A stretch of 64,000 bases of DNA, taken from NCBI GenBank assembly GCA_000004985.1, contig GG738867.1. One strand, written 5' to 3'. Origin of the DNA: Naegleria gruberi. Taxonomy: Eukaryota. This document shows positions 14,401 through 64,000 of the stretch, one piece after another. The translations under genes were made by a program, and so were the position numbers. The notes under the pieces were generated by a model that saw only the letters and a program-made list of their open reading frames with translations, was not told where the DNA came from and searched no databases. How positions within the stretch are numbered: the first letter of the stretch is position 1; each line of letters begins with the position of its first letter.

Positions 14401-15249
14401 AATTGAAATTGTAAAGTGAAAAATCTTGACCAAAATTGTAAAGTAAAACATCACCATTTCCAATATAAAACAAATTGGTAATTTCAAAGAAAGTTCGTTG
14501 TGGAATGTTGGCACTGTACTTGGGTGCAGTTTCTTGTTGACAGCCCAATACTGTTTTCAACTTTCCATTCGAAACCTTTCGTAAGTAATATTGACTTTCA
14601 ACAAAGTACAACTCATTCTTATAGTAGAATGGGAAAGTAAGAGATGCTGCTGAATACATTTGGAGAGGAGAAATATTTTCACCTTTTGAGTGAATAATTA
14701 TGCCACCTGATAATGTGGAAACCATTTTGGTTTGCAGATCAATCTTTCGAATACATCTATTCGATTTATCTGCCACTATTATTGTATTTTGGGTGACAAT
14801 TAAAGAAGATGGTTCATAAAATTTGATATTGGGAGAATCGTATAATTGATTATCACCACCATATCCTTCTGACCCTCCAATAAGTATTTTGGTTTCGTCT
14901 GAATTCAGCAATTTCATTGTACGAAATTATTACTTTGAGATGAAGTGTAAATTTCACCTCCACTAGAAACATAGACACCATATCTTTCGAATAGTTATCA
15001 ATTGAATCAATCAATTATTCACTTACAAATTAGATTGAGCCACTCCTCCATCCACAATTCTATACTTTCCATTTTCGTCAATTGACTTGACTCTTTCTGC
15101 ATCTGTGAAATAGACAATATCCTTATTACATATCCAGCATAAACTTCCACCACCGACAAGTTGTTAAAAATCCTAAACACCAAATGTCTTTCAGCATTTG
15201 CAACAAAGACATCTCCATCCAACCAACACATTCCAGTCGGGGACAACAT
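11469..15249 (-). CDS. Multi-exon receptor-like Ser/Thr protein kinase with an NHL-type beta-propeller ectodomain, an EGF-like Cys cluster, one TM helix and a cytoplasmic kinase domain
   Basis: Exon 1 is 15249..15130 (true ATG; donor GTAATA). Large exons cover about 14917..13877 and 13783..11803 (NHL-like repeats; CNGNGQCSDFDTCQCNNGFEGQFCE; TM VLAVAIVIPIVAVLLILIAIFIVVIVIIM; kinase motifs GQGAFGSVYKV, HRDIKPTN, DFGLAK). Last exon is 11761..11469 after a 41-nt intron (GTAAGT at 11802..11797, AG at 11763..11762). Some middle junctions were not resolved. Confidence 0.6.
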
Positions 15250-23981: not shown

Positions 23982-25115
23982 ATGTCTGTCTATGGAGACT
24001 TTCAAGCTCTCGTTGTTGACAACGGTTCTGGTATATGCAAAGCTGGTTTTGCTGGCGATGATGCTCCAAGAGCTGTCTTTCCTTCAATTGTAGGTAGACT
24101 AAAGCGACAGTCAATCATGATTGGAATGGGTGAAAAGGATGCCTATGTTGGTGATGAAGCTCAATCCAAGAGAGGCATCTTGACCTTAAGGTATCCAATT
24201 GAACACGGTATTGTTACTAATTGGGATGATATGGAAAAGATTTGGCATCACACTTTCTACAATGAATTGAGTGTTGCTCCTGAGGAACATCCAGTCTTGT
24301 TGACTGAAGCTCCTTTGAATACAAAGGCAAATAGAGAAAAGATGACTCAAATCATGTTTGAAACCTTCTCAGTTCCAGCCATGTATATTTCCATTCAAGC
24401 TGTCTTGTCTTTGTATGCTTCTGGTAGAACTACTGGTATAGTTTTAGAATCTGGTGATGGTGTTTCACACACTGTTCCAATTTTTGAAGGTTATTCGTTG
24501 CCACACACCATTTTGAGATTGGATTTGGCTGGTCGTGACTTGACTGATTGCTTGATGAAGATTTTGATGGAAAGAGGTTACTCATTCAACACTACTGCTG
24601 AAAGAGAAATTGTAAGAGATATTAAGGAAAAGCTCTGTTACGTTGCTTTGGATTTCAAAGAAGAAATGAAAGTTGCTGCTGAATCGTCTTCTGTTGAAAA
24701 GTTATATGAATTGCCAGATGGCACTGTTATAACAATTGGTAACGAACGATTCAGATGTACAGAAGTTTTATTCCAACCTAATTTCGTTGGTATGGAAGAT
24801 GCTGGTGTTCATGAAATAGCCTTCAACTCAATTGGTAAATGCGACATTGACATTAGAAAAGAATTGTTTGGAAATGTTGTCTTGTCTGGAGGTACTACCC
24901 TGTTCGAAGGTATTGCTGAAAGGATGACCAAGGAATTGACTGCTTTGGCACCAGCCTCAATGAAGATAAAGGTTGTAGCCCCACCTGAAAGAAAGTACTC
25001 AGTCTGGATTGGAGGCAGTGTCCTCGCGAGCCTTGCAACCTTTCAGCAGATGTGGATATCGAAAGAAGAATATGAGGAGGTTGGTCCTGGTTTTGTTCAT
25101 AGAAAGTGCTTCTAA
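23982..25115 (+). CDS. Actin, single exon, with a divergent N-terminus
   Basis: True ATG at 23982. Roughly 80% identity to conventional actin over 377 aa ([30 protein letters not shown] ... [40 protein letters not shown]). Confidence 0.9.
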
Positions 25116-25324: not shown

Positions 25325-25775
25325 ATTCATCTTTTCAAAATCTTAATATTGAAATATTGAGAGAACATCAAGAGTCATTATCCCAAAATTCTATTGAAAA
25401 TTTGAAACTTGTTGACTTTAATGATTTTGACTTTTTTAAATTTTCTATTATTATTTTGTAAATTCTCAATTTCAGTAAGGAGGAGATGAAACAATTTAGA
25501 ATATATAACATTTAAATGAAAGCCATGAACAAACTACTGTTGAATATTAAGGTAAACTACCAAATTCAATTCATGTTTGAAAATGAAGTTGATTTCGCCA
25601 ACAATTGGAACGGAATTGCGGAGTAGATGAGGACAATTTATAAATAATACCATCCACTCTGGCATCCAACTCATTTTCCAAATGCCACACAAAACAACAA
25701 GTGGTAACCTTCTTAAAAATCATAAAACGTTGCAAATTCATGTTTCTTGTAATCAACTTGAAAGTAGTAAAAAAA

Positions 25776-28700
25776 ATGAGCAGCAACGAAGAAGCACCAA
25801 CTTTAATCAAAAATTCATCTCATAATCAAGATGATGAATTGGAGGATCTTCTCGATGCTCGGAATGAAAATGTTGTGGATGTGTTTAAGGAGGAGATTGA
25901 TGGGTCGTCTTCAGAGCCATTAGAGAATGGAGCTTCTTGGATATCACTCGTGTTCTTTTCATTTGCTGGAAGTTTGATGAGTCTTGGGTTTAGAAAGGCT
26001 GGTGAGAATTATTTGATAAAATTGATCAAACAAATGTTGAATCGAATTGGGATATTTGGTCAGTTTCAGATTAGAAAGGAGGAGGGAATGAATCATGGAG
26101 ATATTCCCAAGTTGGATGAAAGGTTCAAGGCAAACAGGCATTGTGAATTATTCGAAAGACAGTACAGAGAATTATATCATGAGAGAGGTTATTATAGTGA
26201 GGATGGAGGATTTAGGAAGAATTTTGGAACTTTATTGTTGCGAGTGATTGAGAGAGCTTATAGAAATAGAGGATTATATTCAATATCCTTGTGGAAGATT
26301 GCTGAAATGGCATGTTTGTACATGTCACCACTCATTCTCTATATTTTACTCGAGTCAATCAAGGTGGATGATTATGTGAAAAGTGCAATACCAGCAGCAA
26401 CTCAATTTTTAATACCAATTTCTTCCTACGGATTGTTGAATAATGACACTGTCATTACCTCCAATTACACAATGAACAACGAAACAAATTGGTTTCAAGA
26501 GAACTTGCCACTCTCAAATATTTTCTTCCAGTTGACTTTGGTAATTTTATTATTTACTTTCAACTCAATGGCTTCATTGTGCATCCATCAGTATTACTAT
26601 GCTACTTCAAAAATTTGGATTCCACTCATTGGAGCACTTCAAGGTTCAATCTTGCAAAAGCTGAATAGAATCAAGAGTGAGGAAAGAAGAAAATTCAAAA
26701 GTGGTGAATTGAACAATTTATTTGCCACAGATGCCAAAAGATTAGCCATGGATGGTATTGATATTCACGAGGCTTGGCTATTGCCATTGACATTAATTGT
26801 TGGTGTTGTATTGGTTTTCCTATTTTTTGGTTATAGCTCACTTGTTGGTATTCTTGCAATGGTAGTTTGTGGACCTATTCTTCCATTGTTGGGTAAATAT
26901 CAAACTAGTTTTGCTGCCAAAGCTGCCGAATTCAGAGATGAAAGAGTCAAGCACATTAGTGAGGTATTGAATGGTATTAGAATTGTCAAGTTTTATGTTT
27001 TTGAAGACAAGATGAAAGAAAAGGTGAATCAAGCAAGAGGGAAGGAATATTCACTCCTCAAAAAGTATATTACTGTATTGAGTGGATATTGCTTTACTTC
27101 TTCTTTGATTGCTGTTGTTGGAAGTGGAGCCACTTTTGTTACTTTCTATTATGTAGGTGGAAATTTGACCTTACCTAAAATGTTCACTGGTCTAGTGTTG
27201 TTTAGCACCTTTAGATTACCATTATTGTATTTGCCTTGGGTCTTTTCAAACTTGGTTTTGGCCTATGTGAGTGCTAAACGTATTGGTAGATTCTTGTTTT
27301 GTGAAGATACTTTGAATTTACCTCATGATCATGAAAATAAGGCGAATTTGTGGGATTTTGATTCAGAACATACTGAATTGTCATCAATTATGGATAATAA
27401 TTCAGCTATTGAATGTAAAGATGCATCTATTGGATGGTCAGAAGAGGATGCTCCTATTCTCACTGATTTAAATCTGAAAATTGAGAAAGGAAAGCTCTAT
27501 TGTGTAATTGGTAATACTGGTAGTGGAAAATCAACTCTGATCTCCTCAATTTATGGTGAATCTATTGTAAAGAGTGGAAAAGTTCAAGTTAACCCATCAT
27601 GTAATATTTCACTCAGTGATGAAACTCCATGGTTGATCAATGCATCTGTCATGGAAAATATAATTTTTGATAAGAATTTAACTTTTGACAGGGAAAGATA
27701 CAATAGAGTATTGGATGTGTGTCAATTAAGAGACGACCTCAGTCAATTCCCAAATCATGATCAAACCGAAATTGGTTTTTCTGGAATTAACCTTTCAGGA
27801 GGTCAAAAACATAGAATTAGTTTAGCCAGAGCATGTTATAGTAATTCTGAAATTATCTTAATGGATTCCACTCTCAACTCAATTGATGCCAAATTGTGTA
27901 GAAAGATTTTTAATGAATGTATTAGTGGATATTTGAAGGACAGAACTAGAATTCTCGTAACGCACTCGCTGCAGTTGTTGGAAATGGCTGATGAAGTCAT
28001 TGTTTTAGAGAATGGAAAATTGATTGCCAAAGGCCCTCTGAAGGATATTAAGGATTCCTATGACTTTTCCAAACTAATCTCTGAACAGGAAGAAGAACTT
28101 GAAACTGTAGAGAAAGAAGCAATTGAGAAGGAAAAGAAACAAGATGAAAAGAAGGGCCAACTTGTAGCTGTGGAAGATAAGAGCCACGGTGAAGTTAGTT
28201 GGGCTGTCTTTATGGCCTATATCCGTCAGTGTGGAATTTTCTTGACACTTCTCAGTCTCTTTATGAATCTATTATCTATTGGAGCAAAAACAGCAAGTCA
28301 AGTCTGGATATCTGTTATGAATAGTGACCTGCTTGGATTACCTCTGGGTACCTATGTTTGGGTCTTCTTCTCTTTTGGATTAATGGATTGTTTCATCATC
28401 TTCTTTAAGGAGTTAACTTTAGGTTTTGCTACTCTAAGAGGTTCGACCAATTTGCATAGAGGTATGCTGAATAACATTCTAAGAGCTCCAATACAATTCT
28501 TTGATCAGAATCCAGTCGGAAGAGTATTGAATAGATTTACTCAAGATTTAGAAACTTTGGATAATATGGTAATGCCTGCCTCTGATTTTATTGGAAATGT
28601 GTTGAATATTTTCTTTACCCTAACTCTGATATCTATAATCAATCCAATGTTTTTAATTGTGGTTATTCCAATCGGTTTAGCATTTTACTTTATTCAAGAA

Positions 28701-30036
28701 TATTATAGAACTACCTCAAGAGAACTTAGAAGATTGGAATCAATCTCAAAGAGTCCAGTCATGTCACATTTCAATTCATGCCTCGAAGGTGTCAATACTG
28801 TTAAGGCATCGCTTGTACATTCGAATATTTATGCAGATAGTTTTTCAAAGATTGACTTTGCCAACAAACATACCTTTAACAGATTTATGATAAACAGATG
28901 GTTGGGAGTAAGAATTCATCTCAGTAAGTATCTATTCACATTAATAATGTTTCTCATATATTTCACAGTTTCTCAATCAGTTTTGTTCTTCACAGCAATT
29001 TTTGCCATCATTGCCAAAAATACACAAGATATTAGTCCAGCTTTCCTTGCCTTGACTATTTCAAACTCTCTCCAGTTGAGTGATTGTTTCCAAGGTCTGG
29101 TTCGTTCTTTTGTTGAAGTTGAAAGTAATATGACTTGTGTGGAGAGAATTGTTTATTATGCCCAGAGTATCTCACAAGAAGCTGCCTATGACAAAGAAGG
29201 AGATCCAACCACAACCGAATGGCCAACTAAGGGACATATTCAATTAGATAAATTCTCAGTAAGATACAGAGATGATTTAGATCCAGTTTTGAAGAATCTT
29301 GATTTGGATATCAAAGCAGGAACCAAAGTTGGTGTTGTAGGAAGGTAAGTTGTTTAATATTTCTTAACATTTCTAATAATCATAATAGAACTGGAAGTGG
29401 AAAGAGTACTTTATTGATTTCACTGTTCAGATTCCTCGAAGCTAACGAAGGTAAAATCTCCATTGATGGTCAGATATTTCGAGTATTGGTTTGAGAGCTT
29501 TACGTAAAGCTTTATTAATCATTCCCCAACAACCTGTTCTATTCTCTGGATCTATTCGATACAATTTGGATCCTTTTGATGAATTTGAGGATTATGAAAT
29601 TTGGAATGCCCTCGAACGAGTTCACATGAAAGAGAAGATTCAACCACTCCAGCTCTCATTCACCGTTACTGAGAATGGTAGCAATTTTTCAATTGGTGAA
29701 AGACAATTGCTTTCCTTGAGTAGGTGCATTTTGAGGAAGGCAAAGATTATCATCTTTGATGAATCGACTGCATTTGTGGACCATAATAGTGATGCATTGG
29801 TTCAGAAGGTTATCAGAGAGGAATTTAAAGATAGTACCATCATAACTGTTGCTCACAGATTGGACACCATCATTGATTCCGATAGTATTGTCTTTATGAA
29901 GGAGGGTGAGATTATTGAGACTGGAAGTCCTAAGGATTTACTCTTGGATGAAAGATCGAATTTCTCCTCTCTTGTGAGAGAAACTGGTAAACAGTACTCC
30001 GATCATTTGAAGAAGCAAGCTTTTAAACTTCCTTAA
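25776..30036 (+). CDS. ABC transporter, ABCC/MRP subfamily (TMD-NBD-TMD-NBD). Exons are 25776..29344 and 29389..30036; the intron is 44 nt. There is an apparent 1-nt deletion frameshift at about 29471-29473 inside NBD2.
   Basis: The ORF-track start at 25701 is GTG; the ATG is at 25776. NBD1 has Walker [10 protein letters not shown], signature [14 protein letters not shown] and Walker B IILMDS. Splice GGAAG|GTAAGT...CATAATAG|AACTGG restores the NBD2 Walker A ([14 protein letters not shown]). NBD2 has signature [13 protein letters not shown], Walker [10 protein letters not shown] and H-loop TVAHRL. Expected GKISIDG[12 protein letters not shown] is split across two frames. Confidence 0.8.
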
Positions 30037-37840: not shown

Positions 37841-40734
37841 CTGTTAATATTACTCACCAAAGCTTTTTCAAGCCTTGTTGTAGGATTGGCAAATAATAAT
37901 GTAATTCCATTAGATAATAACTTAATGGAAATTGTCAATATTACTAATAATATAAATAATGTAAATAATACTAACTCTGTAATGATAGATGATGATTTGA
38001 TTTCAACATCATCTAATGAATCTACTCAACCTTGAGTGGAACTACCACTAGTTTAAGACTTGCATGCTACAATGTTAACGGTCTATACAAGCATGCAGTC
38101 CATAAATCTGTAACTCAAGAATTGAAATCTATGTGTTTAACACATGGAGTTCATATGATGAGTATTACAGAAACACACGTTAACACTACTGAATTAGAAA
38201 TTAAAGTTAGAAATTCTGGTTCAGGTTATTTATTATTTAACTCCCTTATGGGTCGATCTAAAGGCTGTAAAGGAACAGCAGTTATGCACTTTTTAAATAA
38301 TCATAGAAAGCGTAACATTACCAATAATAATTTAGTACCTGGAATCTTACAATGGACAAGATTTGAAAGCAGGGGAATTCCAATTAATTTATTTACTATT
38401 TATTTAAGTGGCAGATCAGATGATTATGAAAATGATCAAGAAGCCATTAACAGTTTTATCAATGCTGTTTTAACATGTAAAGATGAACATATTATTTTAA
38501 GTGGGGATCTTAATATTGATACTCAAAACCCCACTACTACAAGAGAAAAGGATTGGATTTGGATTCTTGAAATGTTAAAATTGACAGAATTCAAAACACC
38601 AAATTATACATGGATTAGACGAAGTCAGGGAACTTTAATTAGATCTAGACCTGACCATATCTTTGTCTCAAAGAATATTAGAGTGGTAAAGGAAGTAATT
38701 ATGACACCTTTGACCACTAATGATCATGTCCCTTTTTATTTAGATTTAGAATTTAAATCTAATCTTACTTGGAGAACTTACTTTAGTAAGAATAAGAGGA
38801 AAAGAATGTACGAAGCAATTAATAAGTGTAAAATTGACAATTTTCAAGAGCTGAATCAAGCAATTGAGGCTCAAATAATTAAATATGGATCCAAAGTAGA
38901 TAGATTAGGAGTTGGAAGAATTTCTACAGCATTTAAAGAAGAAATTCAAGATTTAGAGGATGAAATATTATCTAAAATTAATAACCCTAATATTCCTCAA
39001 TCAGAAATACAAGAACTACAAACACTCCTAAAAGAAACACATATTAATAATGCAAAAGAGATTAAGGAAAAACTTATAGATGAATTTAATGATAACTCTT
39101 CATCTAGAATGTATCAATTTGATAAAATGATACACTCTAACCAAATTATGTGGAAAGACCTTAACTTTGAAGAAGAAGAAATAGTGGATTACTTTACAAA
39201 CAAATTTACCTCCACTAATCAACAACCAACATTCACACCAAGTAATTCAACTATCAAAGAAGGTCCAGATTGGAGCAATTCGATTCATATTAAAGAGCTA
39301 CAAGATGCTCTCAAACGAATGAAATCAAACACTTCTGGGCCTGATCTAATCTCACTTGATATAATTAAACATCTTACAGAAGCTAATCAAGGAATCCTCT
39401 TAGAAGAATATAATAGATGTTTAAGAGATGGTGATATTCCACAAAATTGGAAACAAGGATGGGTAAAACTCATTCCTAAAAGAGAAATTAATACCTTAAG
39501 TGATATTCGCCCAATTACTATTTTACCAATATTTTACAGAATATTATTTAATATTATAGCATTTAGATTGAGATCTTGGGCATCAACTCATATTAATGTT
39601 AGACAACAAGCATTTATTACAGACAGAAATACTTTGAATCATGGTGTATTACTCTCTGCCTTAGCAATGAAAACAAGGAAAAGGACTTTTATTTTAGTGA
39701 ATTTAGATATAGAAGGGGCGTATGATGCAGTCGAATTACCTGTCATCAAAATGGCCCTAGACCACTGCAAATACCCTTCAGAACTTACTCAATTCATTTT
39801 AAATGCTTATGCTAACCATGAACTTCAATTAGAAATTGATAATCATCTCTCTGATAAATTTAAGAAAACAAGAGGAATACCACAAGGCTGTCCACTGGCC
39901 CCTCTTATTTACGATTGTATTACCCAATTAATAATTGACAAAGCAATTGATAAGTGGAAGATACCAATCAAACCAGGCAAACTATGTGCAAATGATATTG
40001 CACTCTGCTGTTTTGCTGATGATATGAATGTTGTATGTGACAGATATGCCAAATATAATGAGAGACTAGACAATATTCATGATTGGTTACATCAATTATT
40101 ATTTAAATTGAATGCTAAGAAATCAGTAGCAACTCTATTACCTAAAAAGAGCACAGTCTCACCTAAAATCAAAGGTACTCCAGTACCTAAACAGAAAAAC
40201 CTTAGAGTACTTGGCCATTACCCTTGGGATGATACTTTGGTAACACAAGACATCCAATCCAAGATAGACAAATTCACAAAATCATTAAGATTTTTACCAT
40301 TATTCAAATTACAGCCAACAAACCTTAAAATAATTATGCATGCTAAAGCAATCAGCCTATTCACTCACCTCTCAAAAATCAATATAATCCCTTTAAAGAA
40401 AGCTCAGGAAATAGATCGTGCAATTAGAGGTGCAATCAGACGTAAATTATTAATGGACAGAGCAACTCCAACAAGTTTCTTTCACCTGCCATTAGAAGAA
40501 GGTGGATTAGGATTACCATCAATTGAGGAATTCTCTGAAAGAATGAATTTAAGAACTATGAATTTAATCGCCAATAATAAGAATAAGTTAATAAGAAAAG
40601 CTTTCAAACATGGTATCAAACATTGTGAGGAAACTAAAGATAATATGTATGCTAAATGGTTATCTGTACTTTAAGAATATAATCTCACATTTGTGCAGAA
40701 TGATACGAACTTTAGAATAGCCGGNNNNNNNNNN

Positions 40735-40774
40735 NNNNNNNNNNNNNNNNNNNNNNNNNNNNNNNNNNNNNNNN
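40735..40774. other. Assembly gap (run of 40 N)
   Basis: Literal n characters in the sequence. Confidence 0.99.
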
Positions 40775-41386
40775 ACTCAGAATCACACCTCCTTGTTAAG
40801 GATGGTGTTGTCATCTTCAATCATAAGAAGATGACCATAACAAGACATTTAAGTGTAAGACATAATAAGATGAATGAAAACCCTAACTTTATTCTAAACC
40901 AAAGTTGGGATTCTCTTAATGTGCAATACCTTAAAACTCGTCTTACTCCTAAAACTAAATACTTTATATGGAGAAATTCCATCAATGCCCATATCAATTT
41001 TGGTAAGGGTAAAAGTTTCTGTTACGATTGTGGTACAGAATCTGATTTATTCCATTACATTCATGAGTGCCCTGGCTTGGATAGTGCCAGGTATTTTTGT
41101 CAGTCAAAGATATCTGATATTCTTGAAGGGAGAGAGTGCTTACTTTCTCATTTTCAATTCAAACCAGAAAAGCATCACCATGCATTACATTTCCATCATA
41201 ACGGAATCACCTCTTTCGAAGATGGATACATGCAATTCCATAAAGACATCGCTAAGAAGTGGCCAGAGATCCAAGGTGCCATTTCTAACTTTGTCGGCCG
41301 TTCCTATTCTAACTATTATATTGACTCCAAATAATTTATATAACCTATGAGAATCTGAATAGATTCGTTATTGTCGTAATAAAAGA

Positions 41387-49083: not shown

Positions 49084-49758
49084 TTATTGCTTGTTAGCAA
49101 AGATACATCCACCAGTTCCAGTTTGACCACTGACAGGACACTTATCACACTTTTCAACAATTCCATGTCTTGAATTATCATCAACATAATATTTGGCAAA
49201 CAAATCATTTTGAATCCACAACAACTTGTTGAAAGCCAACAATGTCTTGACTCTTTGTTCTTCACTCAAATCCTTACAAGTAGCAATAGTTCCCAACAAG
49301 ACATCAGAAACATAACCAAATAAGGCATTGATGTGAATATAATCAATAATAATATCCTTATTACCAGCCTTGGCAGTGTGAATCTTACCAACCCAATCCA
49401 AATAATTAACAAAAGCCTTTGATGTATAATCAGCAGTGACAAGCTTGACAAGATACTTGCTCAACATGTCCTTTCTGAATCTGATTTGTTCACTAGCCTT
49501 ATCATCTAATTCATCCAAATTTTCTTCCATCTTTCCTTCAAATTGATCATTTCTAACAAGGAAAGTTCTTTTAGTAACATCAAAACTGAATAACTTTTTG
49601 TAAACCAAATCAACAACAGTTGGAACCAAAGGAGCCAAAACTGTAGCAGATTCATGAATATACTTGATATCTTCTTCACCAAAACCAATAAATTTGGTAA
49701 CATAGCTGAATCTATATTGCAAGTCAGTGAAAAGTTGCTTTTCTTCGATAGTTTGCAT
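49084..49758 (-). CDS. Globin-fold protein, protoglobin/globin-sensor-like
   Basis: True ATG at 49758. Helical pattern LAPLVPTVVDLVYKKLFSFDVTKRTF...YLDWVGKIHT...IHINALFGYV resembles protoglobin-type globins from memory. Tentative. Confidence 0.4.
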   Translation of the reverse strand: MQTIEEKQLFTDLQYRFSYVTKFIGFGEEDIKYIHESATVLAPLVPTVVDLVYKKLFSFDVTKRTFLVRNDQFEGKMEENLDELDDKASEQIRFRKDMLSKYLVKLVTADYTSKAFVNYLDWVGKIHTAKAGNKDIIIDYIHINALFGYVSDVLLGTIATCKDLSEEQRVKTLLAFNKLLWIQNDLFAKYYVDDNSRHGIVEKCDKCPVSGQTGTGGCIFANKQ

Positions 49759-52100: not shown

Positions 52101-52398
52101 CCCAGCAACAATTGGCTACCTCAACAACCAAAAAAAGTACCAGAAATCATCTACCGCCACCAGTACACACGATTTTGGAGTTACCCTCTTTGGAAAGGAT
52201 GGAGTGTCAAGTAACGAAGGCGCTTCAATTCAATCAACTAACCAATCAATATCTGAAAATGGCTAAAGAGTCGCAGATTTTTTGATTGACCAGGAGAATC
52301 CTTTGCTAGGTCAAAAATATATGAAATTCAAAAAAAGTCTTATTAACATCTTCTAAAAAAAAAAGAATAATCACCTTAATTTGGCAATAATTGGTAAA

Positions 52399-52487
52399 AG
52401 GCGACTGAGGGAATTGAACCCTCGACCCTCAGTTATCTCGACATTTCTGCCTACAAGACTGATGCACTGCCACTGTGCTAAGCCGCC
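52399..52487 (-). tRNA. Intron-containing tRNA, anticodon most likely UGU (Thr), with a 17-nt intron after position 37
   Basis: Reverse complement: GGCGGCT-TA-GCAC-AGTGGCA-GTGC-A-TCAGT-CTTGTA[GGCAGAAATGTCGAGAT]A-ACTGA-GGGTC-GAGGG-TTCAATT-CCCTC-AGTCGCC-T. Acceptor, D, anticodon and T stems all pair. U33 and A37 are in place. Followed by a T4 terminator. Confidence 0.6.
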
Positions 52488-52707
52488 TTACAATCGATGA
52501 ATTCACTCAAAAATAAATGCAAAACAATTGCTAAAATAAAAGTGTTTATCTTAAATTCCTCATTCTAACTCTCTATTCCAATCTTTACTCATTCACATAT
52601 TCACAAACACAAATCAAAAGAACTTTAATTGCCAATTATCTAAGTTTGTGAGCTCATGTCATTCGTGCCAACACTAAATTATATATCAAACTTGAATTGT
52701 CATCAGA

Positions 52708-54456
52708 TCATTCGAATGGTTCATAGGATGAAGTATTATTCTCTTCCGATGTTTGTTGATTCAGAGATGTGGTGAGTGTTGACGTCTCACAGGAATTTGT
52801 TGACTTTTCCTTATTGAAACATTTGTAAAGTGTTAAAAATTCTTCCTTATCAAATTCCATAAAGGCCACCCCAATTCCAAGCAAAGTACTACTCAAATAG
52901 GTTGATAATGAGATGAAAGTCAAAATACCAGGTCCAATAAAAGTTGGTTGGGACAATGCCAACACAGCATAGGACAAGGAAATGGCAAATAGAATTACTG
53001 ATGAGAAAATGATAAATCTAACATGCTACATGTATCATTTAAATCCATATTCCAAAATATTAGCTTACTTACATTTGTTTGCACTAGGTTAATATCTGAT
53101 AATTGTTTCATTACTCGATGAGTATAAAGTGAGGCACAAATAAATACTTGATTTTTCATGTTAATTTTTCAAATTGGCTTGGAACTTACCACACAAGGCC
53201 GCAAATGAAAAAACTGACAAGTAAATGTAATAGAACATTTGAAATTGTCCCATGTCATTTGGAAATGCAACAGAGGCAACTATTGGTGAAATTATTCCAA
53301 CTGTAAAAAAGAGTAAACCTAGGAAAATGTAGCAAACTCTTACTGAAATAGTTATTTTACGAGCTCTCGCTAACTCAACAATTCTATACAAGCCGAAAAT
53401 CCAAGCAAATAAACCGAATATAGAAATAATATTAGAAAGAGCTGCAAAAATCAAGGTAGTCTTAGAATAAGAATCTGATGCCAGAATCTGCACACTTGCT
53501 ATTATCTGAAATAGAAATCCAATCACAACACAAGAGGTTGGAATCAAATTAGCAAACCTTTTAGTTTTGACAACTTTTCCTAATTTTGGAATAAAACCTG
53601 CAAAAAAGATAATTACAGAGAGAATGAAATGTGTAAATGTCACACCAATTCTCGTTATTAAATTTGCAATCATATCATTCATTCCAAATGTGCATTTGGG
53701 TCCAAACGATTTGCTCTCCACACACGAGCATATATAGGAATAGGTTCCCAATAAAGAACTCTTCACAATTTGACTATTATTAACCAAAATGGGAAATCCA
53801 AAGATTGTATATCCACAATAGAGTATTGATCTTGGAAATCCAAGAATCATTTCTCTAGCAATTGAATCTCTCGGCTGGCATGTACCTTCCAAGATTCTCC
53901 TCTTGTAATTCCTCGATTCCTCTCCACAATATTGACATGCATTAATCCAATCAGTTAACATGGTCTCTCCATTCGTTGAATTGTAAATAAAATCATTCAA
54001 AGAACCAATTCCATTATTCAACATCATCTGCGACCGATCACACAACAATTCAGTGCACGAACTATTCATAATTCTCTCCCAACGTTTCACACTTTGGCAA
54101 ATATCAAAACTCTCTTTCGGAAGCAGTGCAATATCATTAATAAATTCATAGAACTTTACATGAATATTCATTTCATAATATTTAGCTAGTTTTACATTTT
54201 CACATGAAAAGAAGGGTGAAATTTCTTCTGAATTTAATGCATGTTTTCTTAATTCTGCACCATTGGTCATCAATTCGGAGGCATTCCTACAATTTTCAAA
54301 GGAATTTAATTGTGTATAATTTTCATTCCACTCAGTCGTTGATGATTTGTTAATCATCATGAATAATAGAACAATTATTTCCGCAAACACAACAATAATA
54401 TTCTTCCTATTTGTGATCAATGCTGGGCTGGGTGTGATCTTCCCTTGTCTCGTCAT
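52708..54456 (-). CDS. 7TM receptor-like protein with a Cys-rich N-terminal ectodomain (paralog A). Exons are 54456..53190 and 52997..52708; the intron is 192 nt.
   Basis: True ATG at 54456 with a signal-anchor. About 12 Cys in the ectodomain, including DWINACQYCGEE. Five TM helices in exon 1 and two in the last exon. Splice G|GTAAGT...TCATCAG|TA, phase 1. Confidence 0.55.
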
Positions 54457-54482
54457 TTTTTTAGGCTTTTTATAGATCTATT

Positions 54483-56196
54483 TCAGTTCTGTGGTGAAAT
54501 GTCGTCTGATGTGGTGGTGAGAGGAAGTGATTCTTCTTTGGTGGGAATATTATCTATATAATTATCACTATTAACATTTGACTGTCTCTTGAATTTACAG
54601 GGAAGGTACATTTCTTTGAATTCAACTGAATCAAATTCTACAATGATTAAACCTAATGAAACGATGGAGAATAGAGCAGAAACTAGAGAGTAGATACCTG
54701 AGGACCACCTATCGTCAATGATTGAATTAATGCAGAGAATGTGGAGCAAATATCCAAGACAAACCAGAACAAATGCAACAATTACAAAAATGGAAAATTT
54801 CAAAAACTTATACAGTTAATAAAAGAAAAATAGAGAAACATACTGGTGATTGCATCAAATTGATATCAGAAATCTTTCTCATCTCAACATAAATCCAAAC
54901 AGATGAGACAATAATTGCTTGTAAAAGTTAATAGAATCAATTCATCCATGAAACATACCAATCACACTAACAATAGAAGCTCCTAATAAATAAGATTCCA
55001 AAGCATTTACAAAATAAATTGCATAAACATTTTGAGTATAGATTGAGGCAACTATAAAAGGAAGAATAACTCCAAATGAGATTGAGGCAAACAATGGAAT
55101 TACATAGAGGAAAATTGTAGCTCTCAATGATAAAGGACTATGTCTAACTAATCTAATCCAATTGGACAACCATGAAAATATGGCCAATTGTAAAAAGTTG
55201 AAAGACAATTGATAAGCAATTAAGAAAATAAAAATAATGAGCGAATTTGAAAATAACACAACTCCAAAGCAAATACTCCAAGATCCTACAAATATTCCAT
55301 TGTAAATACTTGGTATAATATTCAGATACTTTCTATCTCTGAGCATTCTCTTTGTTTTTGGAATGATACTTATAAAAGTATTGAGAATAAAGAGAACTAA
55401 TGAAGAAGCAAAGAAAAAGTAAATTGATGCCATGTCAAAGTTTGAATCTTCACCTAAGTAACATTTGGATACCTGAAAAGCAACTGCACAGATACAGGAA
55501 ATCATTCGTATATTTTCCAAACAAACTATTCGATTGTACTAGAAATGGAATTCCAAATGATTGAGTTCCACAAAAATAAATTGATGTTGGAAATTCACTA
55601 ATCATTCTATTGGAGAGTTGATCTCGCGATTGGCAACTCCCAGCAGAAACTCTTTTCTTAAAATGTTCACTTCTTCCAAGACAATACTGACATCCATTAA
55701 TCCAATCTGTTAAATTATTCGTTCCATTAGTATTTAACATTAAATATTCCTGTAAATTCTCAATTTTCCCATCATAATCACACAACAAATCAATACACGT
55801 CCTATTAAGTCTCGATTCCCAATAATTCAACTGCATACAAGCATCCACATCCCCAAAATACGAATCAACCCTAAATTCACCACTTTTTCCCTGTATTTGT
55901 TGAATAGTTTGAATTGTATAAATCATCATTGAATTACACTCAAAAGAGAGTGGTATCTTTGGTTCTCGGAATGTTCCCTTCCCAAACTCAACAGGATTAA
56001 ACATGTACGGTGATGAATGATTACAACCGGAAAAGATTGGAAAATATTCTTCTTGACCATTCACGGCATATAATTGATCATGATAATAAATGAATAGGAA
56101 GAGGAGGAGGATCGAGAGGATTATTCGGAATCTATTGTTGTTTGGATAGAAAATGCTTTTCATCGATTCCAATTCATTTCTGTTTTGGAGTTTCAA
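54483..56196 (-). CDS. 7TM receptor-like protein (paralog B). Three coding segments: 56196..~55478, ~55477..54942 and 54803..54483. An apparent 1-nt insertion in a TTTT run near 55477-55480 shifts the frame, so this is a possible pseudogene or a sequence error.
   Basis: Same architecture as A and C: DWINGCQYCLGRSEHFKKRV, CSC...SKC, KTKR after TM1, multi-TM body and a TM-containing last exon. The two overlapping track ORFs read the same nucleotides in adjacent frames. Confidence 0.45.
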
Positions 56197-56382
56197 TAGC
56201 TATTGAAATAGGTTACTTGATTGTGTTATGCATTGATTGGTTAACCTGGATTCTGTCTATTTTTGAATAACAAGGAATGCATTCCAAGTTATTTTGTTTC
56301 CCGCCACTTTAGTAAAGAGTTCATCAGATAACATCTTGTATCTGAACAATGTCAGTTTCTTTCAAAATCCATAATTAAAAAA

Positions 56383-58729
56383 ATGAAAGTGTCACCAGAG
56401 GTTAATACTGTACTGAGCTCCCAAGAAATTGACGTTTCTGACAAGCAACTGCTTCTCCAAGAAAAGAGAAGAAAATTCTATCAAGGAGTAGTTCCCTTAA
56501 ATTTATTCATTGTTTGCACCATTTCCTTATTGATTTTGAGTGGTTGCATATTCGTTTGGGTTTCGTCTTTTATCGTTACTAGCAATTCAATAGAAAATTT
56601 GAATGCCATGTTTATTGAAGAATCTGGTCAAAAGATCATTAAGAGTTTGACTGGTTATCTGGACCCAGCTGCAAAACTTACGAAAATGTTGGCCAAAGAT
56701 TGGAATTCTGGCTCGGTTAATCTTACTCAATTGAGAGAGTACTTATTTCCAAAATTCCAACAATTTGAAACGAGTGGTTGTGGTTTCTTTTTCAATGATA
56801 CCTATTCTTATAGATACACTTATACAGTGAGTGGTACTGCAAGTAATCCAGTTGTAGGTAAGTTGTTTCTTTTTTGAATATGGAAGGAATTTGAAACTTT
56901 TCAGTTTATAGTCAACAACCTTATGGTTTCATAGGTTCCATTCGTGACATGATTAATATCACAACAGGAGATGTTATTAAATATAAATACCAAGTAATTT
57001 ACACTCCAATTATCATGGTTGACCAAGACTATTGGATTTATCTTTCTAAATATACTAAACAGACTGGGCAAGAAGGTGTTCTGGGAGATCCTTATCTTGC
57101 ACCAGGTGCTAGTATGACAATCTATTATGCACAATGGGTATACGATCAAATATTGTGGAAAACTCAAAAGCAAAAGAGAATTATTGGGCTTGCAAAGATT
57201 AATCTTTCTCTTGATTCCATTGTCAATTATCTATCCAAGATTAAACTCTTAGGTGACGGTTATGTAGTAGTCACATTAAACTCTGGACTGGTAATTGGTG
57301 GTTCCATAAACACAACCGTCAATGATGGTCTGACATCTGCTCATATTTTTGATATTGAAACCAGAGGTGCTGGAAAGTTGATTAAGAAATTCTATGAGAA
57401 TAATGGAAATACTTTCCTAACCTTCCCAGAGAATATGAAGTTAAGCAGTGATGGAGTTGGATATATTATCACTCCAATCAAGTTTAAATATGAGAATTTA
57501 GAGTGGAATATTTTCTTTGTCTTGTATGAATCTGATGTGAACGAGGCATTAGTGATTAGCTCTTCCGTGAGTGTTGGTGTCACAGTGGTGATTGTCATAT
57601 TTGGTATTACTGCAAGTTTGTGCACTGGTTGGATTGTTTCTCGACCAATGAAATTCTTAGAAAATCAATTTGAATCAATTAGAATATTAGATTTGGAAGC
57701 AGTTAATTTGAGTAAGATATCCATGTTCAGAGAAGTTGATTCAATCTTTAACAATCTATATGATACAGTTTCATGGCTCAAGGAAATCAAATCTTTCATT
57801 CCAGATTATGTGTTTGAGCAAATCAAACAAAACCAGGAAGTTGAATTGCATAAAGGACAGGAAGTTAAAGAAAAGAATGATCACCTTTCTGAATCATCCT
57901 CCAGAAAATCAGTTTCATCCTCCAGAAGTGCAATGACGGCCAAACATTCTTCAGATAAGAGTTCATTCAAGAATCAACATCAATCGCTTTTCAAAATGGG
58001 TTACAGCAAGAAAGGGGTAGTATTCATTCATGCTAAATTGGAGAATTTAGTTGAGCAAGAGGTGGATTACATTTCAAACTTTTTCAAGGGATTCATTTCT
58101 GCAATATCAACAGTTGTAAAGGTTAATCAAGCAACTTTACATGTCATTTCATGTGAAGAGATTCAGATTTCACTAACTTCCAACTCTTTAGATGAGAAAA
58201 CCTATGAGAAAGGAGTTGACATTGCTTTAAAGATTGTTAAATCTTGCGACTCAAAAGTCATACCAAGAATTATTCAGAATTTGCCTCCAAGTATGATGTT
58301 AAAATAGTAACAGATTCAGAAAATATGCCACTTGATAAGTATATTAATCGTCCACTTGATATTATTGAAATGAAACAGCAGAGAGTGAGGATACATGAAT
58401 TAATTGATAAGAAGAATACTGATAATGATGAATGGTTGTACGAATTAGAAAACTCTAAAAAGAATAATAAGTATGCAGAATATTCCAAAATATTTGAAAT
58501 ATTCCATAATGATTATTGGAATGGAAAGGATGTTGCTGTGGAAGTGGAAGATTTGTTATTGGTTTTGGATCGTTTTAGAAATGTAGAGTTTTCTGGAAGG
58601 AATGACTTGTCGTGTGATGAATTATCAAACTTTTTAACAGATCTACTGCAAGTTACTGATCCACGAGAAGCAAATTCTAGATCCAGTACCTATGCTAAAA
58701 AATTGGTCCTAGACCTGAAGGTAATATAA
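56383..58729 (+). CDS. Receptor-type membrane protein: TM1, an extracellular sensor-like domain, TM2, then a cytoplasmic region with degenerate class-III nucleotidyl-cyclase-like features. Exon 1 is 56383..56857. There is a 77-nt intron. Exon 2 runs 56935..58729, with an apparent 1-nt frameshift near 58285-58295.
   Basis: True ATG at 56383. TM helices LFIVCTISLLILSGCIFVWVSSFIV and VSVGVTVVIVIFGITASLCTGWIVS. Splice G|GTAAGT...TTTCATAG|GT, phase 1. The cytoplasmic part has GVVFIHAKLENL ... KYDV(K)IVTD motifs reminiscent of cyclase homology domains; the functional call is weak. Confidence 0.4.
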
Positions 58730-58773
58730 TCCCTTCAATAAGTACTATGATGAGTGAAAGCATTACTAAATAA

Positions 58774-60500
58774 CTACTTTGAAGTAGCACTGCTCTGACT
58801 GGTATAGTAGGTAATAGAATCCTTATTTGCAGTTTCCATTGATTCATCCTTCATTGATGAATATCCAGCGTTTTGATTAGTTAAAGATTCTGAAAGAGAG
58901 ACATCGAACTCCAAATCAGTGCTACCTCTTTTACAATAATAGAATGATCTAAATTCGTCGTTATTATATTCTGAATAAAACAATGCAATAGCAATTGAAA
59001 ACTCAAACACAACAAGCATGGTTCCAAAAAAAAGATACCAAACACCAATTACGTTTTCTAATGCTACAATTGAAATGAAAAATGATGCCATCAGTAACAG
59101 TAAAACTGAGACAAACACTACAAATTTGGAGTACTAATTCAAATTAAGTTAATGTTACAAATATCACTACTTACAAAAGTGTTATGTGTAATTTCAACAT
59201 CAGTCAATTTTTTCAAACTAATATTTGCCCAAATTGATGAAATAATAAATGCTAAATGATATTAATAATGAAAATTCTCAAAGCACTTACCAAGTGTTGA
59301 TAATAAAGACAGCACTGCCATAATAATATTATAAGCATTTCTAAAAATATTAACTACAGTGAAGAAAAATACAATTGGAATGACAAATCCAAAACCAATA
59401 GCAATTAAGAATAACACAGAGTGCACAATAATTGACTTAATGAGAATGCCTCTTATTTTTTGTATAGTCCACACTATTCTTATCCAGTAATGAACCCATG
59501 AAAATAATGCCATAATCAAAAAGCTTGGACTTGCTGTATTCAGAGTTCCAAATAGTCCTCTGGCTATTGCATAGTCAGATGGTAAAAAGGAAGCGACCCA
59601 AAAGCTAATATTAAATACGAGTAAATAAAATAGGCAATATAAACTAGTAGAAATAGGAAGGTACCTCTTGGTCTTGAAGCACTGTTTCATCTTTGGTAAG
59701 AAGACGAAAAATACAAAGCAAACCATTAAAATTGTCTCAAAAATAATGATAGCAAAATTAATTAAAGTCAAAAATTGATTCAATGCTAATTCTGTATCAC
59801 AATTGAATGCAAAAAATAAAAGTTCTGGGCATGTACAATAGTATGAGAAAGTTTCTGAACTGGAATATCCAGACAACACACTATTATTGATTACTAATGG
59901 AAACCCAAAATTATTTCTTCCACAATAAGTAATTGTTGAAGGAAATTGATTAATCATTAGATTAGCAACTGAATCTCTTGGATTACATTGTTGTAATAAG
60001 GTCCTTGTCTTAAATTCCTTTGCATGCTTACAGTATTGACACGAATTAATCCAATCATGTAATTGCAATCCTCCGTAAGAGGTTACTAAGCTCAAATCCT
60101 CCAAACCACTATCACACAATAAATCCACACATGTAATATTCAATATATTTTCCATATATTCCACTACCTGGCATGTGTCATACATTGGTGAAGACTGAAT
60201 CAACAGACGATTCCACATCGAATATGAAAACGGTGATGAAGCATCATACGTCTGTGCAACATAGGTAGAATTACAATAAAAATCAAGTGGAAATCGTTCA
60301 TTAGTTATCATGTTAGTATGATTAAAATATATCATTTCAATAGATGGATTCCTACAATTCTGAAAATATGCATATTGATATATTCCCGGAGCAGTAATTG
60401 TCGTCATATTGGATGCCGCCTCCACTTGTAAATTCATCATCATCATTAAAAGTAGTAAAATTGTGGAGGAGAAAATATGTTGTAGATAATTATCTTGCAT
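58774..60500 (-). CDS. 7TM receptor-like protein with a Cys-rich ectodomain (paralog C). Exons are 60500..59291 and 59117..58774; the intron is 173 nt.
   Basis: True ATG at 60500 with a cleavable-looking signal (ILLLLMMMMNLQVEAAS). HDWINSCQYCKHAKEFKTRT. Seven TM helices: five in exon 1 and two in the last exon. Splice G|GTAAGT...AAATTTGTAG|TG, phase 1. Confidence 0.55.
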
Positions 60501-60644: not shown

Positions 60645-61644
60645 ATGTTACAAGCCATTTATCGTATGTAAACACTTTTTCCGAATAATTGATGATTAAT
60701 ACTAATAATATTAATAATAATACTATTTAACATTATAAAGATGAACAACAAGAGGCTAGATTATGTGCCATGCACGCATTAAACAATCTCCTTCAGGGAT
60801 CTTACTTTTCCGAGGTTGATTTGATGGAATTGGCCAGACAACTCGATCAGAAGGAACGTTCTTTATTGGAGGGCAATGATTCAAAAAGTAGTCAGAATGT
60901 TAGTGATGAAGGTGATTTTAGTATTGGAGTAATTCAGGCTGCATTGGAAGTGTGGGGATTAACAACCATTCCAATAGGACATCCATCAATTACTTTATAT
61001 ACGAGGTTTGTTTTTTTAGTATTAATATACTATAATAATATATATTTAATATTTAAAAATACAATCATGTATTAATTGTATCGGAATTGATGAAAAATTA
61101 ATTTTGGAATTGATGATCAATTTTTATTTATTAATATTCGGAATTAAATAGAGAAAATCCGTGGAGTGAAAATGCATACATTTGTAATCATAGAGAACAT
61201 TGGTTTGTGTTTAGAAAATTCGGAAATCACTGGTTTAATTTAAATTCTACATTGGATGAGCCTGAATATCTCTCACAGACCTACATTTCACTTTTCATTG
61301 AACAATTGAAACAGGAAGGATATTCAATCTTTGCAGTGAGAGGTGAATTACCTCAATCTGAGGCTGAACTCTTATCAGCAACTTTTGATCCTAGCTCTAT
61401 TAAGAAGAAACCACCTAAAAAGAAGGAAAATTCGAATCCTATCGATTGGATTACTCGAATGCAGGAACAAATTTTGGGATCTCAACAAGAATCACAACAC
61501 GAAGGAATGGATGATGAAATGATGCAACAAGTATTGGCTCTCTCACGTCAAGATTTTCAACATGATTCTTCCACCACCACTAATCAAATGAATGATGACG
61601 ATGATTTGGAAGAAGCCATTCGAAAGAGTCTTCAAGAGCAATAA
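60645..61644 (+). CDS. Josephin-domain deubiquitinase (ataxin-3-like) with C-terminal UIMs. Exons are 60645..60663, 60740..61005 and 61152..61644.
   Basis: MLQAIY|HEQQEARLCAMHALNNLLQGSYFS... (compare ataxin-3 MESIFHEKQEGSLCAQHCLNNLLQGEYFS). ...ENAYICNHREHWFVFRKFGNHWFNLNSTL (compare ERSFICNYKEHWFTVRKLGKQWFNLNSLL). UIM-like MMQQVLALSRQD and LEEAIRKSLQEQ. Introns of 76 and 146 nt are in phase. Confidence 0.8.
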
Positions 61645-63097: not shown

Positions 63098-64000
63098 TTA
63101 TTTGGAACGAAGAATCTTTTTGAATTTGCCCTTCAAAATTCTTCTAAATGTTTTTCCACTAAATAGCTCTGCAAATATTACCAAACATAGAATTACCAAA
63201 AGATAAACACTCAATCCAATAAACCACTCAGAAGTTGCATAAATTCCGTGCACTCCAAAGTATAAATTCAAAATTCCAGCCAAAACAATAATTCTTCCTC
63301 CCCAAATATGGAAAAATGTTGAAATTTGTTTTGAAATCTTTTTAAAATTACTTGATTTTCTGAGGAATGATTCTTGTTCTGTTGATTTTCCATTTCCTGA
63401 CACCTGTTGACTATCTTTCTTTTTAAAGAATAAATGAAATACTGCTGTCAATGGTCCTGTCAACATTAATTGATATAATATCAATGCTAAAAATACAAAT
63501 AATCCAATCCACTTGTGAATACTATCAAAATGTCTATTCGTTGTCAGTGAACAAGCAACCAGTGATAAAATAAATGCAATGACAATGCAAACAACTCCAA
63601 CAATTGAGAGAACAATGTGAGTGGCAACTCCTTTGATTTTTGCAGAGAAACGAGCCGAATGTCTCACAGCCAACATGGATGCCACTAAAATTAATGAAAA
63701 TCCAATAATCATCAAGATTCCATGTGTAATTCTCAATCCCTGTAGTGTTACAGTTACAGGATAATAGTAAATACTTTGAAATTCAAACCAACCATATCCC
63801 ATATTCGAAAAAACAATATTCGAAAGTACATTCTCACCACTTGAAGTCCAAGTTGCAAAATTCAAAAACATAATTCCTCTCTCATTCTTTTTCGATGGTA
63901 AGAAAACATCATGTTCAACATCTGTCGTATTTTTCAATCTACTAAATTCAATAACTTTTACAATACATTTATCCTTTCCCACACAAGTCAACTCTTGATT
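63098..64000 (-). CDS. Multi-pass membrane protein, cytochrome b561/DOMON-like (ferric-reductase-type haem-binding TM core). It is 5'-partial: the ORF is open to the window edge.
   Basis: The ORF-track 'M' at 63991 is TTG and the frame continues off the window. Conserved His in consecutive TM helices (ITHGILMIIGF, AVRHSARF, ATHIVLSIVG, DSIHKWIGLF), as in b561-type di-haem proteins. Tentative. Confidence 0.4.
   Translation of the reverse strand, partial: NQELTCVGKDKCIVKVIEFSRLKNTTDVEHDVFLPSKKNERGIMFLNFATWTSSGENVLSNIVFSNMGYGWFEFQSIYYYPVTVTLQGLRITHGILMIIGFSLILVASMLAVRHSARFSAKIKGVATHIVLSIVGVVCIVIAFILSLVACSLTTNRHFDSIHKWIGLFVFLALILYQLMLTGPLTAVFHLFFKKKDSQQVSGNGKSTEQESFLRKSSNFKKISKQISTFFHIWGGRIIVLAGILNLYFGVHGIYATSEWFIGLSVYLLVILCLVIFAELFSGKTFRRILKGKFKKILRSK

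Follow-up and report, generated by a model that had tools for sequence, protein, structure and literature searches.

What do three adjacent, mutually similar membrane-protein genes encode in Naegleria gruberi, and do they still function? The question arises from a stretch of 64,000 nucleotides (nt) of the N. gruberi genome (GenBank assembly GCA_000004985.1, contig GG738867.1), referred to here as the window. Between positions 52,708 and 60,500, three paralogs, denoted A, B, and C, lie on the minus strand, and a plus-strand gene, denoted D, is located between B and C. The original prediction described the paralogs as a tandem array of lineage-specific, receptor-like proteins with seven transmembrane (TM) helices and a Cys-rich ectodomain, and the analysis presented here supports that description. 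The reading favored here, with moderate confidence, is that A, B, and C encode Naegleria-specific, fast-evolving cell-surface glycoproteins with seven TM helices, predicted to be receptors with a G-protein-coupled receptor (GPCR) fold and possibly coupled to G proteins.

The three genes occupy the places originally assigned to them, as borne out by their open reading frames (ORFs) and spliced models:

52708..54456, minus strand: paralog A, intact, 552 amino acids; exons 54456-53190, 53146-53073, and 53025-52708 including the stop codon
54483..56163, minus strand: paralog B, disrupted; exons 56163-54959, 54917-54844, and 54806-54483
58774..60500, minus strand: paralog C, intact, 548 amino acids; exons 60500-59291, 59251-59175, and 59133-58774
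53073..53146, minus strand: middle exon of A, encoding VFICASLYTHRVMKQLSDINLVQTN, missing from the first model of the gene
54844-54917 (B) and 59175-59251 (C), minus strand: equivalents of the middle exon, which is 74-77 nt long across the three genes

Each gene has three exons, as determined from the ORF listing and direct reading of the sequence. Introns are 37-47 nt long (43 and 47 nt in A, 39 and 41 nt in C), start with GTAAGT or GTATGT, end in AG, and share their positions and phases among all three paralogs. The two-exon structure first proposed, with a single separate 3′ exon, is wrong and had overlooked the short middle exon. The middle exon codes for the last part of TM5 together with a loop motif, [MLV]-[KR]-K-[LI]-[ST]-D-[IV], that is kept in all full-length homologs. 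Annotated full-length homologs of N. fowleri and N. lovaniensis are continuous across both exon junctions, which supports the three-exon splice model.

The paralogs are 28-30% identical in pairwise comparison, well past chance, with tblastn E-values of 1e-40 for A and C, 1e-28 for A and B, and 1e-29 for B and C. All three begin with a hydrophobic segment, either a signal peptide or an anchor, and continue into an ectodomain of ~210-230 amino acids that carries 4-5 NxS/T N-glycosylation sequons. Aligning the three paralogs reveals 12 invariant ectodomain Cys residues and an invariant D-W-I-N-x-C-Q-Y-C motif, in agreement with the ~12 conserved Cys and the DWIN-x-CQYC signature noted at first. 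A further signature claimed for all three, KTKR-[FYM] after TM1, is present in A and C but not in B, which has RDRKY at that place in the alignment and, 5 residues upstream, a KTKRM that does not align.

Hydropathy, charge distribution, the placement of Cys and glycosylation sites, and structure prediction all agree with the seven-helix layout. In hydropathy profiles, every paralog shows the N-terminal signal or anchor and 6-7 TM peaks. Lys and Arg number 3-6 in the loops after TM1, TM3, and TM5, which makes these basic, and 0-1 in the alternate loops; this positive-inside pattern fits an N-terminus that faces outward and a C-terminus that faces inward. The 12 conserved Cys and all sequons but one are confined to the N-terminal domain. 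At the other end, the C-terminal tail of 50-80 amino acids is Ser/Thr-rich and acidic and has no Pfam match. The family is predicted, in sum, to have seven TM helices, an extracellular N-terminus, and a cytoplasmic C-terminus.

Structural models were generated with AlphaFold2 and compared with structures in the PDB. The full-length protein that was modeled is P0004, a homolog from N. fowleri with 31% identity to A, and the prediction used a 32-sequence family alignment. Its mean predicted local distance difference test (pLDDT) score is 84.9 and its predicted template modeling score is 0.79. The model contains seven long helices followed by a short eighth, and the predicted bundle can be superposed on solved GPCR structures, its helices being connected in the same way. 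Foldseek agrees in kind with a GPCR-like fold, though weakly (best E 7e-3). For the ectodomain of paralog A, a model with a pLDDT of 86.5 was obtained and is of mixed alpha/beta character; the fold search against the PDB returned no solved structural relative for the family ectodomain. Since the model is confident and lacks a solved relative, the ectodomain may represent a new fold.

The most conserved positions of the family, taken from 26 non-redundant members, lie both outside and inside the membrane. In the ectodomain they are the 12 Cys and the DWINYCxYC, FP, and GIP motifs. Elsewhere they are P-K just after TM1, L and W residues of TM3, and the S-D of loop 3, together with helix 8, where E-F at the start (motif EF[DE]xxEF) is followed by a Cys ~12 residues on. 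The conserved cytoplasmic positions suggest that the family shares a common intracellular partner. Many full-length members also end in a Tyr motif of the form S-x-Y-Y-S-x-hydrophobic (NSTYYSKMP, NSSYYSQLL, TSSYYDSVEK; alignment A5). A has TSSYEPFE (residues 545-552) and C has SITYYTSQ (residues 534-548); the motif is like a YxxΦ sorting signal.

Under the favored reading, the parts of the protein would work together as follows. The N-terminal signal or anchor is predicted to put the disulfide-rich ectodomain outside the cell, joined to a GPCR-fold seven-helix bundle and an amphipathic helix 8 that ends in the conserved Cys. The ectodomain would bind an extracellular cue, plausibly from prey bacteria or the environment, and the bundle would pass the signal on to a partner in the cytoplasm, most likely one of the many heterotrimeric G proteins of Naegleria. 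By analogy with GPCRs in general, candidate phosphorylation sites are the K-K-x-[ST]-D site of intracellular loop 3 and the acidic tail rich in Ser and Thr, the Cys after helix 8 may be palmitoylated, and the C-terminal Tyr motif (YYSxΦ in homologs) may drive endocytic sorting.

Coupling of the family to G proteins is plausible and is put forward here as a possibility. Naegleria has an expanded set of Gα and other G-protein components (PMC9283941; PMC3971589). Some Gα subunits of N. fowleri have slow nucleotide exchange and presumably need a receptor that acts as a guanine nucleotide exchange factor; the same species has arrestin-like genes and a single, weak GPCR candidate recognizable by sequence (PMC9283941). 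With at least five distinct genes in each sequenced Naegleria genome and a confidently predicted GPCR-like fold, the family supplies concrete candidates for the missing receptors.

Among known receptors, the nearest comparison is with the class A GPCRs, in particular the cluster of GPR3/6/12 and the cannabinoid, lysophosphatidic acid (LPA), and sphingosine-1-phosphate (S1P) receptors. The predicted topology, with the N-terminus out and the C-terminus in, is alike. Members of this cluster are not known to have the disulfide between TM3 and extracellular loop 2, and neither A nor C has a Cys in its extracellular loops. The conserved Cys after helix 8 occupies the class A palmitoylation position, where a similar function would be expected. 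In contrast, there is no detectable sequence similarity between the family and class A, the DRY motif is absent, and the cluster does not have the large disulfide-rich ectodomain of A, B, and C. Class F receptors (Frizzled and Smoothened) and class C receptors differ from the family in the pattern of the ectodomain Cys, the 12 conserved residues being arranged otherwise. Neither the Fz Cys-rich domain fold at the N-terminus of Frizzled nor the Venus-flytrap domain with nine-Cys linker of class C was found in the family, whose ectodomain spans only ~210-230 amino acids.

A number of observations weigh against the favored reading. No Pfam family matches A, B, or C at E<=1, and no consistent family emerges from 32 members at E<=10, where scattered single matches all fall under the curated thresholds; the models without a match at these cut-offs include 7tm_1/2/3, Frizzled, Fz, ANF_receptor, NCD3G, Dicty_CAR, Git3, Chs7, RGS, GOLD, and Lung_7-TM_R. 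This outcome bears out the earlier statement that the proteins match no named GPCR class. The family profile, when searched against all PDB sequences, retrieves nothing relevant (KwaA and VTC5 at E>1), and the family has no NPxxY or CWxP motif. All three paralogs share an Arg close to the cytoplasmic end of TM3, but over the whole family its conservation does not reach the 0.75 cut-off. The evidence for a GPCR fold comes from the model of a homolog, built on the 32-sequence alignment, and not from models of A or C. Many proteins with a GPCR fold do not couple to G proteins, and one UniRef record gives a family homolog, P0044, the name "Chitin synthase export chaperone".

A stronger form of the favored reading is offered tentatively: the family may be an unrecognized class of true ligand-activated GPCRs of Heterolobosea, with an ectodomain of new fold, that serves as the exchange factor for the slow-exchange Gα subunits. 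If true, receptor-driven G-protein signaling would extend beyond the groups in which it has been demonstrated biochemically. In N. fowleri, whose infections are nearly always fatal, the homologs would then be parasite-specific drug targets at the cell surface. They could be selective ones because they have no detectable sequence similarity to animal GPCRs.

The name carried by P0044 brings up a different role, which we consider rather unlikely: that of secretory or endosomal cargo receptors or export chaperones, like Wntless, GOST proteins, or Chs7, which would have a GPCR fold without G-protein signaling and a lumenal, cargo-binding Cys-rich domain. The resemblance of the conserved C-terminal Tyr motif to a YxxΦ sorting signal would suit such a role, as would the adiponectin receptors found among the Foldseek matches. 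However, Chs7, GOLD, and Lung_7-TM_R are among the Pfam models that matched none of the 32 members, and the predicted mixed alpha/beta ectodomain is not the N-terminal beta-sandwich of GOST/GOLD proteins. Chs7 identity is not supported, the name of P0044 being an automatic UniRef label whose underlying similarity was not reproduced. Fungal Chs7 and the family are both multi-pass membrane proteins, and only the family has the large Cys-rich N-terminal domain. Tandem copies at 28-30% identity also suit diversifying surface receptors better than housekeeping chaperones.

Doubtful to a similar degree is the proposal that the proteins are surface adhesion or recognition molecules for prey, substrate, or other cells, with the seven helices acting mainly as an anchor or signaling through partners other than G proteins. 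The ectodomain is the best conserved part of the family, with 32 positions conserved at >=80% versus 0-2 per TM helix, and birth-and-death evolution in tandem arrays would fit a recognition function. A precedent exists in the 7TM-RGS proteins of Naegleria, which have adhesion-type ectodomains (PMC9283941). These proteins and a cAR-like candidate come from the same organisms, likewise combine seven TM helices with elaborate ectodomains, and are proposed sensors that feed the expanded Gα repertoire (PMC9283941). The family differs from them in that its C-terminal tail has no Pfam RGS match and in that Dicty_CAR, GPS, EGF, and lectin domains are absent. Against adhesion as the main function are the lack of any detected EGF, lectin, or GAIN/GPS module in A, B, and C and their family and the conserved cytoplasmic motifs of loop 3 and helix 8, which argue for a specific intracellular partner.

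How widespread is the family? An exhaustive hidden Markov model search of 1.84 billion representative proteins, with a profile built from the first exons, gave only 35 matches. Those with names are "uncharacterized" or "predicted" proteins of N. fowleri, N. gruberi, and N. lovaniensis, and the remainder come from environmental contigs. Judged from these matches, the family is confined to the genomes of Naegleria and a small number of environmental contigs, and it is conserved over three Naegleria species. Six of the locus tags of the family are not mentioned in the literature searched, and no published description of the family was found there. Further tandem arrays are present at the following locations:

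N. lovaniensis C9374_000296 to 000298: head-to-tail triplet of family genes
N. fowleri: head-to-tail array of three family genes, one of them a short model
Environmental contig L004, 3232-6193: head-to-tail pair of family genes
Environmental contig L006, 4378-7617: head-to-tail pair of family genes

The two environmental pairs indicate that the family exists in uncultured relatives and that tandem arrangement is typical of it. A neighbor-joining tree of the family is star-like, and all it establishes is that the N. fowleri/N. lovaniensis triplet, a clade of its own, is not orthologous to A, B, and C. Because the triplet clades apart from A, B, and C, the arrays are probably old and largely independent. 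The old tandem duplication proposed at first is supported. The best-supported reading is that the family evolves fast and changes by tandem duplication and gene loss. On this account it would expand and contract over time, with B newly inactivated in this strain.

The genes themselves are poorly represented in databases. A collection of 15 billion proteins contains no N. gruberi entry that equals or nearly equals A, B, or C, whereas D is annotated there as P0048. The proteins nearly identical to A and B are solely gene calls from one contig, L001, and C is without any counterpart. As no match is A, B, or C itself, it appears that neither the public N. gruberi protein set nor the reference annotation includes any of the three genes. 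This absence is of practical consequence, as is the annotation of D, which conceals a broken frame. The findings will interest mainly specialists in Naegleria and in GPCR evolution, given that lineage-specific orphan seven-TM families are unsurprising in protists.

The contig L001 belongs to an ENA assembly (sample ERZ929261), and at the DNA level its exons are ~1-1.5% different from those of the window. On this contig of a closely related strain, B and A are again arranged in tandem, in unchanged order, and the beginning of D is included. The frameshift originally reported in B is real in the window sequence. Relative to the L001 copy, B has a 5-nt deletion at ~55472, where the window reads GGTATCCAAATG and L001 reads GGAATCAAATCCAAATG, that causes a frameshift within the ectodomain, immediately ahead of TM1. 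A second deletion, of 9 nt at ~55151, is in frame. In L001 the first exon of B is intact and encodes 429 amino acids (...CSCFSGIKSKCYLGED...), which means that the disruption is probably recent or strain-specific. The deletion site lies outside any homopolymer, which makes a sequencing error improbable, if still possible. A tiny intron in place of the frameshift was also considered and rejected, as it would have to be 19 nt long.

Substitutions between the window and L001 speak to the constraint on each gene. Paralog A differs by 14 synonymous and 8 nonsynonymous changes, where ~4.7 synonymous changes would be expected under neutrality, and its ratio of nonsynonymous to synonymous rates (dN/dS) is ~0.16. 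Paralog B differs by 9 synonymous and 10 nonsynonymous changes, with a dN/dS of ~0.29. Drawn from ~20 substitutions per gene, these ratios are indicative only, and in that sense they point to purifying selection on A.

The gene between B and C was proposed to encode a two-TM receptor with a cyclase-like cytoplasmic domain and, together with the paralogs, to form a small "sensory receptor island":

56383..58729, plus strand: gene D; exon 1 56383-56857, a 47-nt intron, and exon 2 from 56905

Two TM segments (residues 42-60 and 373-391) are indeed found, flanking an extracellular domain of 312 amino acids. The cyclase likeness holds for the family of D and not for D itself. N. gruberi paralogs of D are 39-48% identical to it by BLASTP, and a profile of D and its paralogs matches PDB sequences of class III cyclase domains with E-values from 5e-6 to 3e-4, for example 5oyh (5e-6) and, in its C2 half, soluble adenylyl cyclase (5e-5). 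Pfam Guanylate_cyc is sub-threshold in 3/6 members of the D family (20.5 vs 21.9 bits), and the extracellular part shows faint dCache similarity (E 0.08-0.3). Searched alone, D has no Pfam match. It lacks ~40 core residues, ..RvGvsvGxxxvGNiGtxtaRfFsvvG.., that are found in all its paralogs (alignment A6), and its reading frame breaks near 58270, which had passed without remark.

The annotated N. gruberi "predicted protein" P0048 is identical to D save for 7 residues that the annotators skipped. Its model omits VKSCDSK by means of a 32-nt GT..AG gap (window positions 58236-58270) with the atypical donor GTTAAA, and this gap hides both the frame break and the loss of the cyclase-homology core. 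As a real intron the gap is disfavored by its poor donor; the core would be missing even if it were real. At the first metal-binding Asp position, the D family has H/V-K (..IHVKLEGL..); the part of soluble adenylyl cyclase to which it aligns is the C2 half, which is non-catalytic. D resembles receptor-type class III cyclases in its two TM segments and extracellular domain and, through its family only, in the profile match, and differs from them by the missing catalytic core, the broken frame, and the absence of the metal-binding Asp. As read from its sequence, D is a decayed copy within a receptor family whose class III cyclase-homology domain is itself degenerate, since the core segment is missing and the frame is altered near 58270.

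The idea of a sensory island is not supported by the other arrays. Searched by tblastn, the ~22 kb of sequence retrieved from around the arrays of N. fowleri and N. lovaniensis gave no match to a D-like gene. On the two environmental contigs no gene lies between the members of the tandem pairs, D itself not having been searched for there.

That the whole cluster is decaying DNA without present function, A and C being merely undisrupted so far, is very improbable in spite of the disruption of both B and D within 8 kb and the absence of A, B, and C from public protein sets that do include D, because A and C have complete ORFs over three exons with canonical splice sites, synonymous changes in A exceed the neutral expectation, B is intact in a related strain, and the family is conserved among species; a purely decaying cluster is therefore unlikely for A and C.

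The window as a whole is ~33% G+C and has mostly single-exon genes with a few short GT..AG introns. Further features that were identified are as follows:

11795-14917, minus strand: receptor-type protein kinase with an EGF-like module in a large extracellular region, one TM segment, and a Pkinase domain (Pfam 6e-36)
23982-25115, plus strand: divergent actin (Pfam 1e-143)
25701-30036, plus strand: ABCC-type ABC transporter, split over two ORFs
38032-41334, plus strand: ORF of a retrotransposon without long terminal repeats (non-LTR), with endonuclease and reverse-transcriptase regions (Pfam RVT_1 3e-28)
49084-49758, minus strand: Protoglobin-domain ORF, 224 amino acids (Pfam E 4e-40)
52398-52488, minus strand: tRNA-Thr (anticodon TGT), 91 nt, just downstream of paralog A
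60770-61644, plus strand: gene for a Josephin-domain (ataxin-3-like) deubiquitinase, split by an intron, both halves matching Pfam Josephin
63098-63991, minus strand: cytochrome b561-like membrane protein

The length of the tRNA-Thr gene, 91 nt, suggests that it holds an intron. The retrotransposon is followed by an assembly gap, which shows up as consecutive X in the ORF at 40693-41334 and fits a draft scaffold. The Josephin gene lies directly upstream of paralog C on the opposite strand, and its acidic C-terminal stretch, DDDLEEAIRKSLQEQ, is like a ubiquitin-interacting motif. The receptor-type kinase at 11795-14917 adds a further lineage-specific surface receptor to the window.

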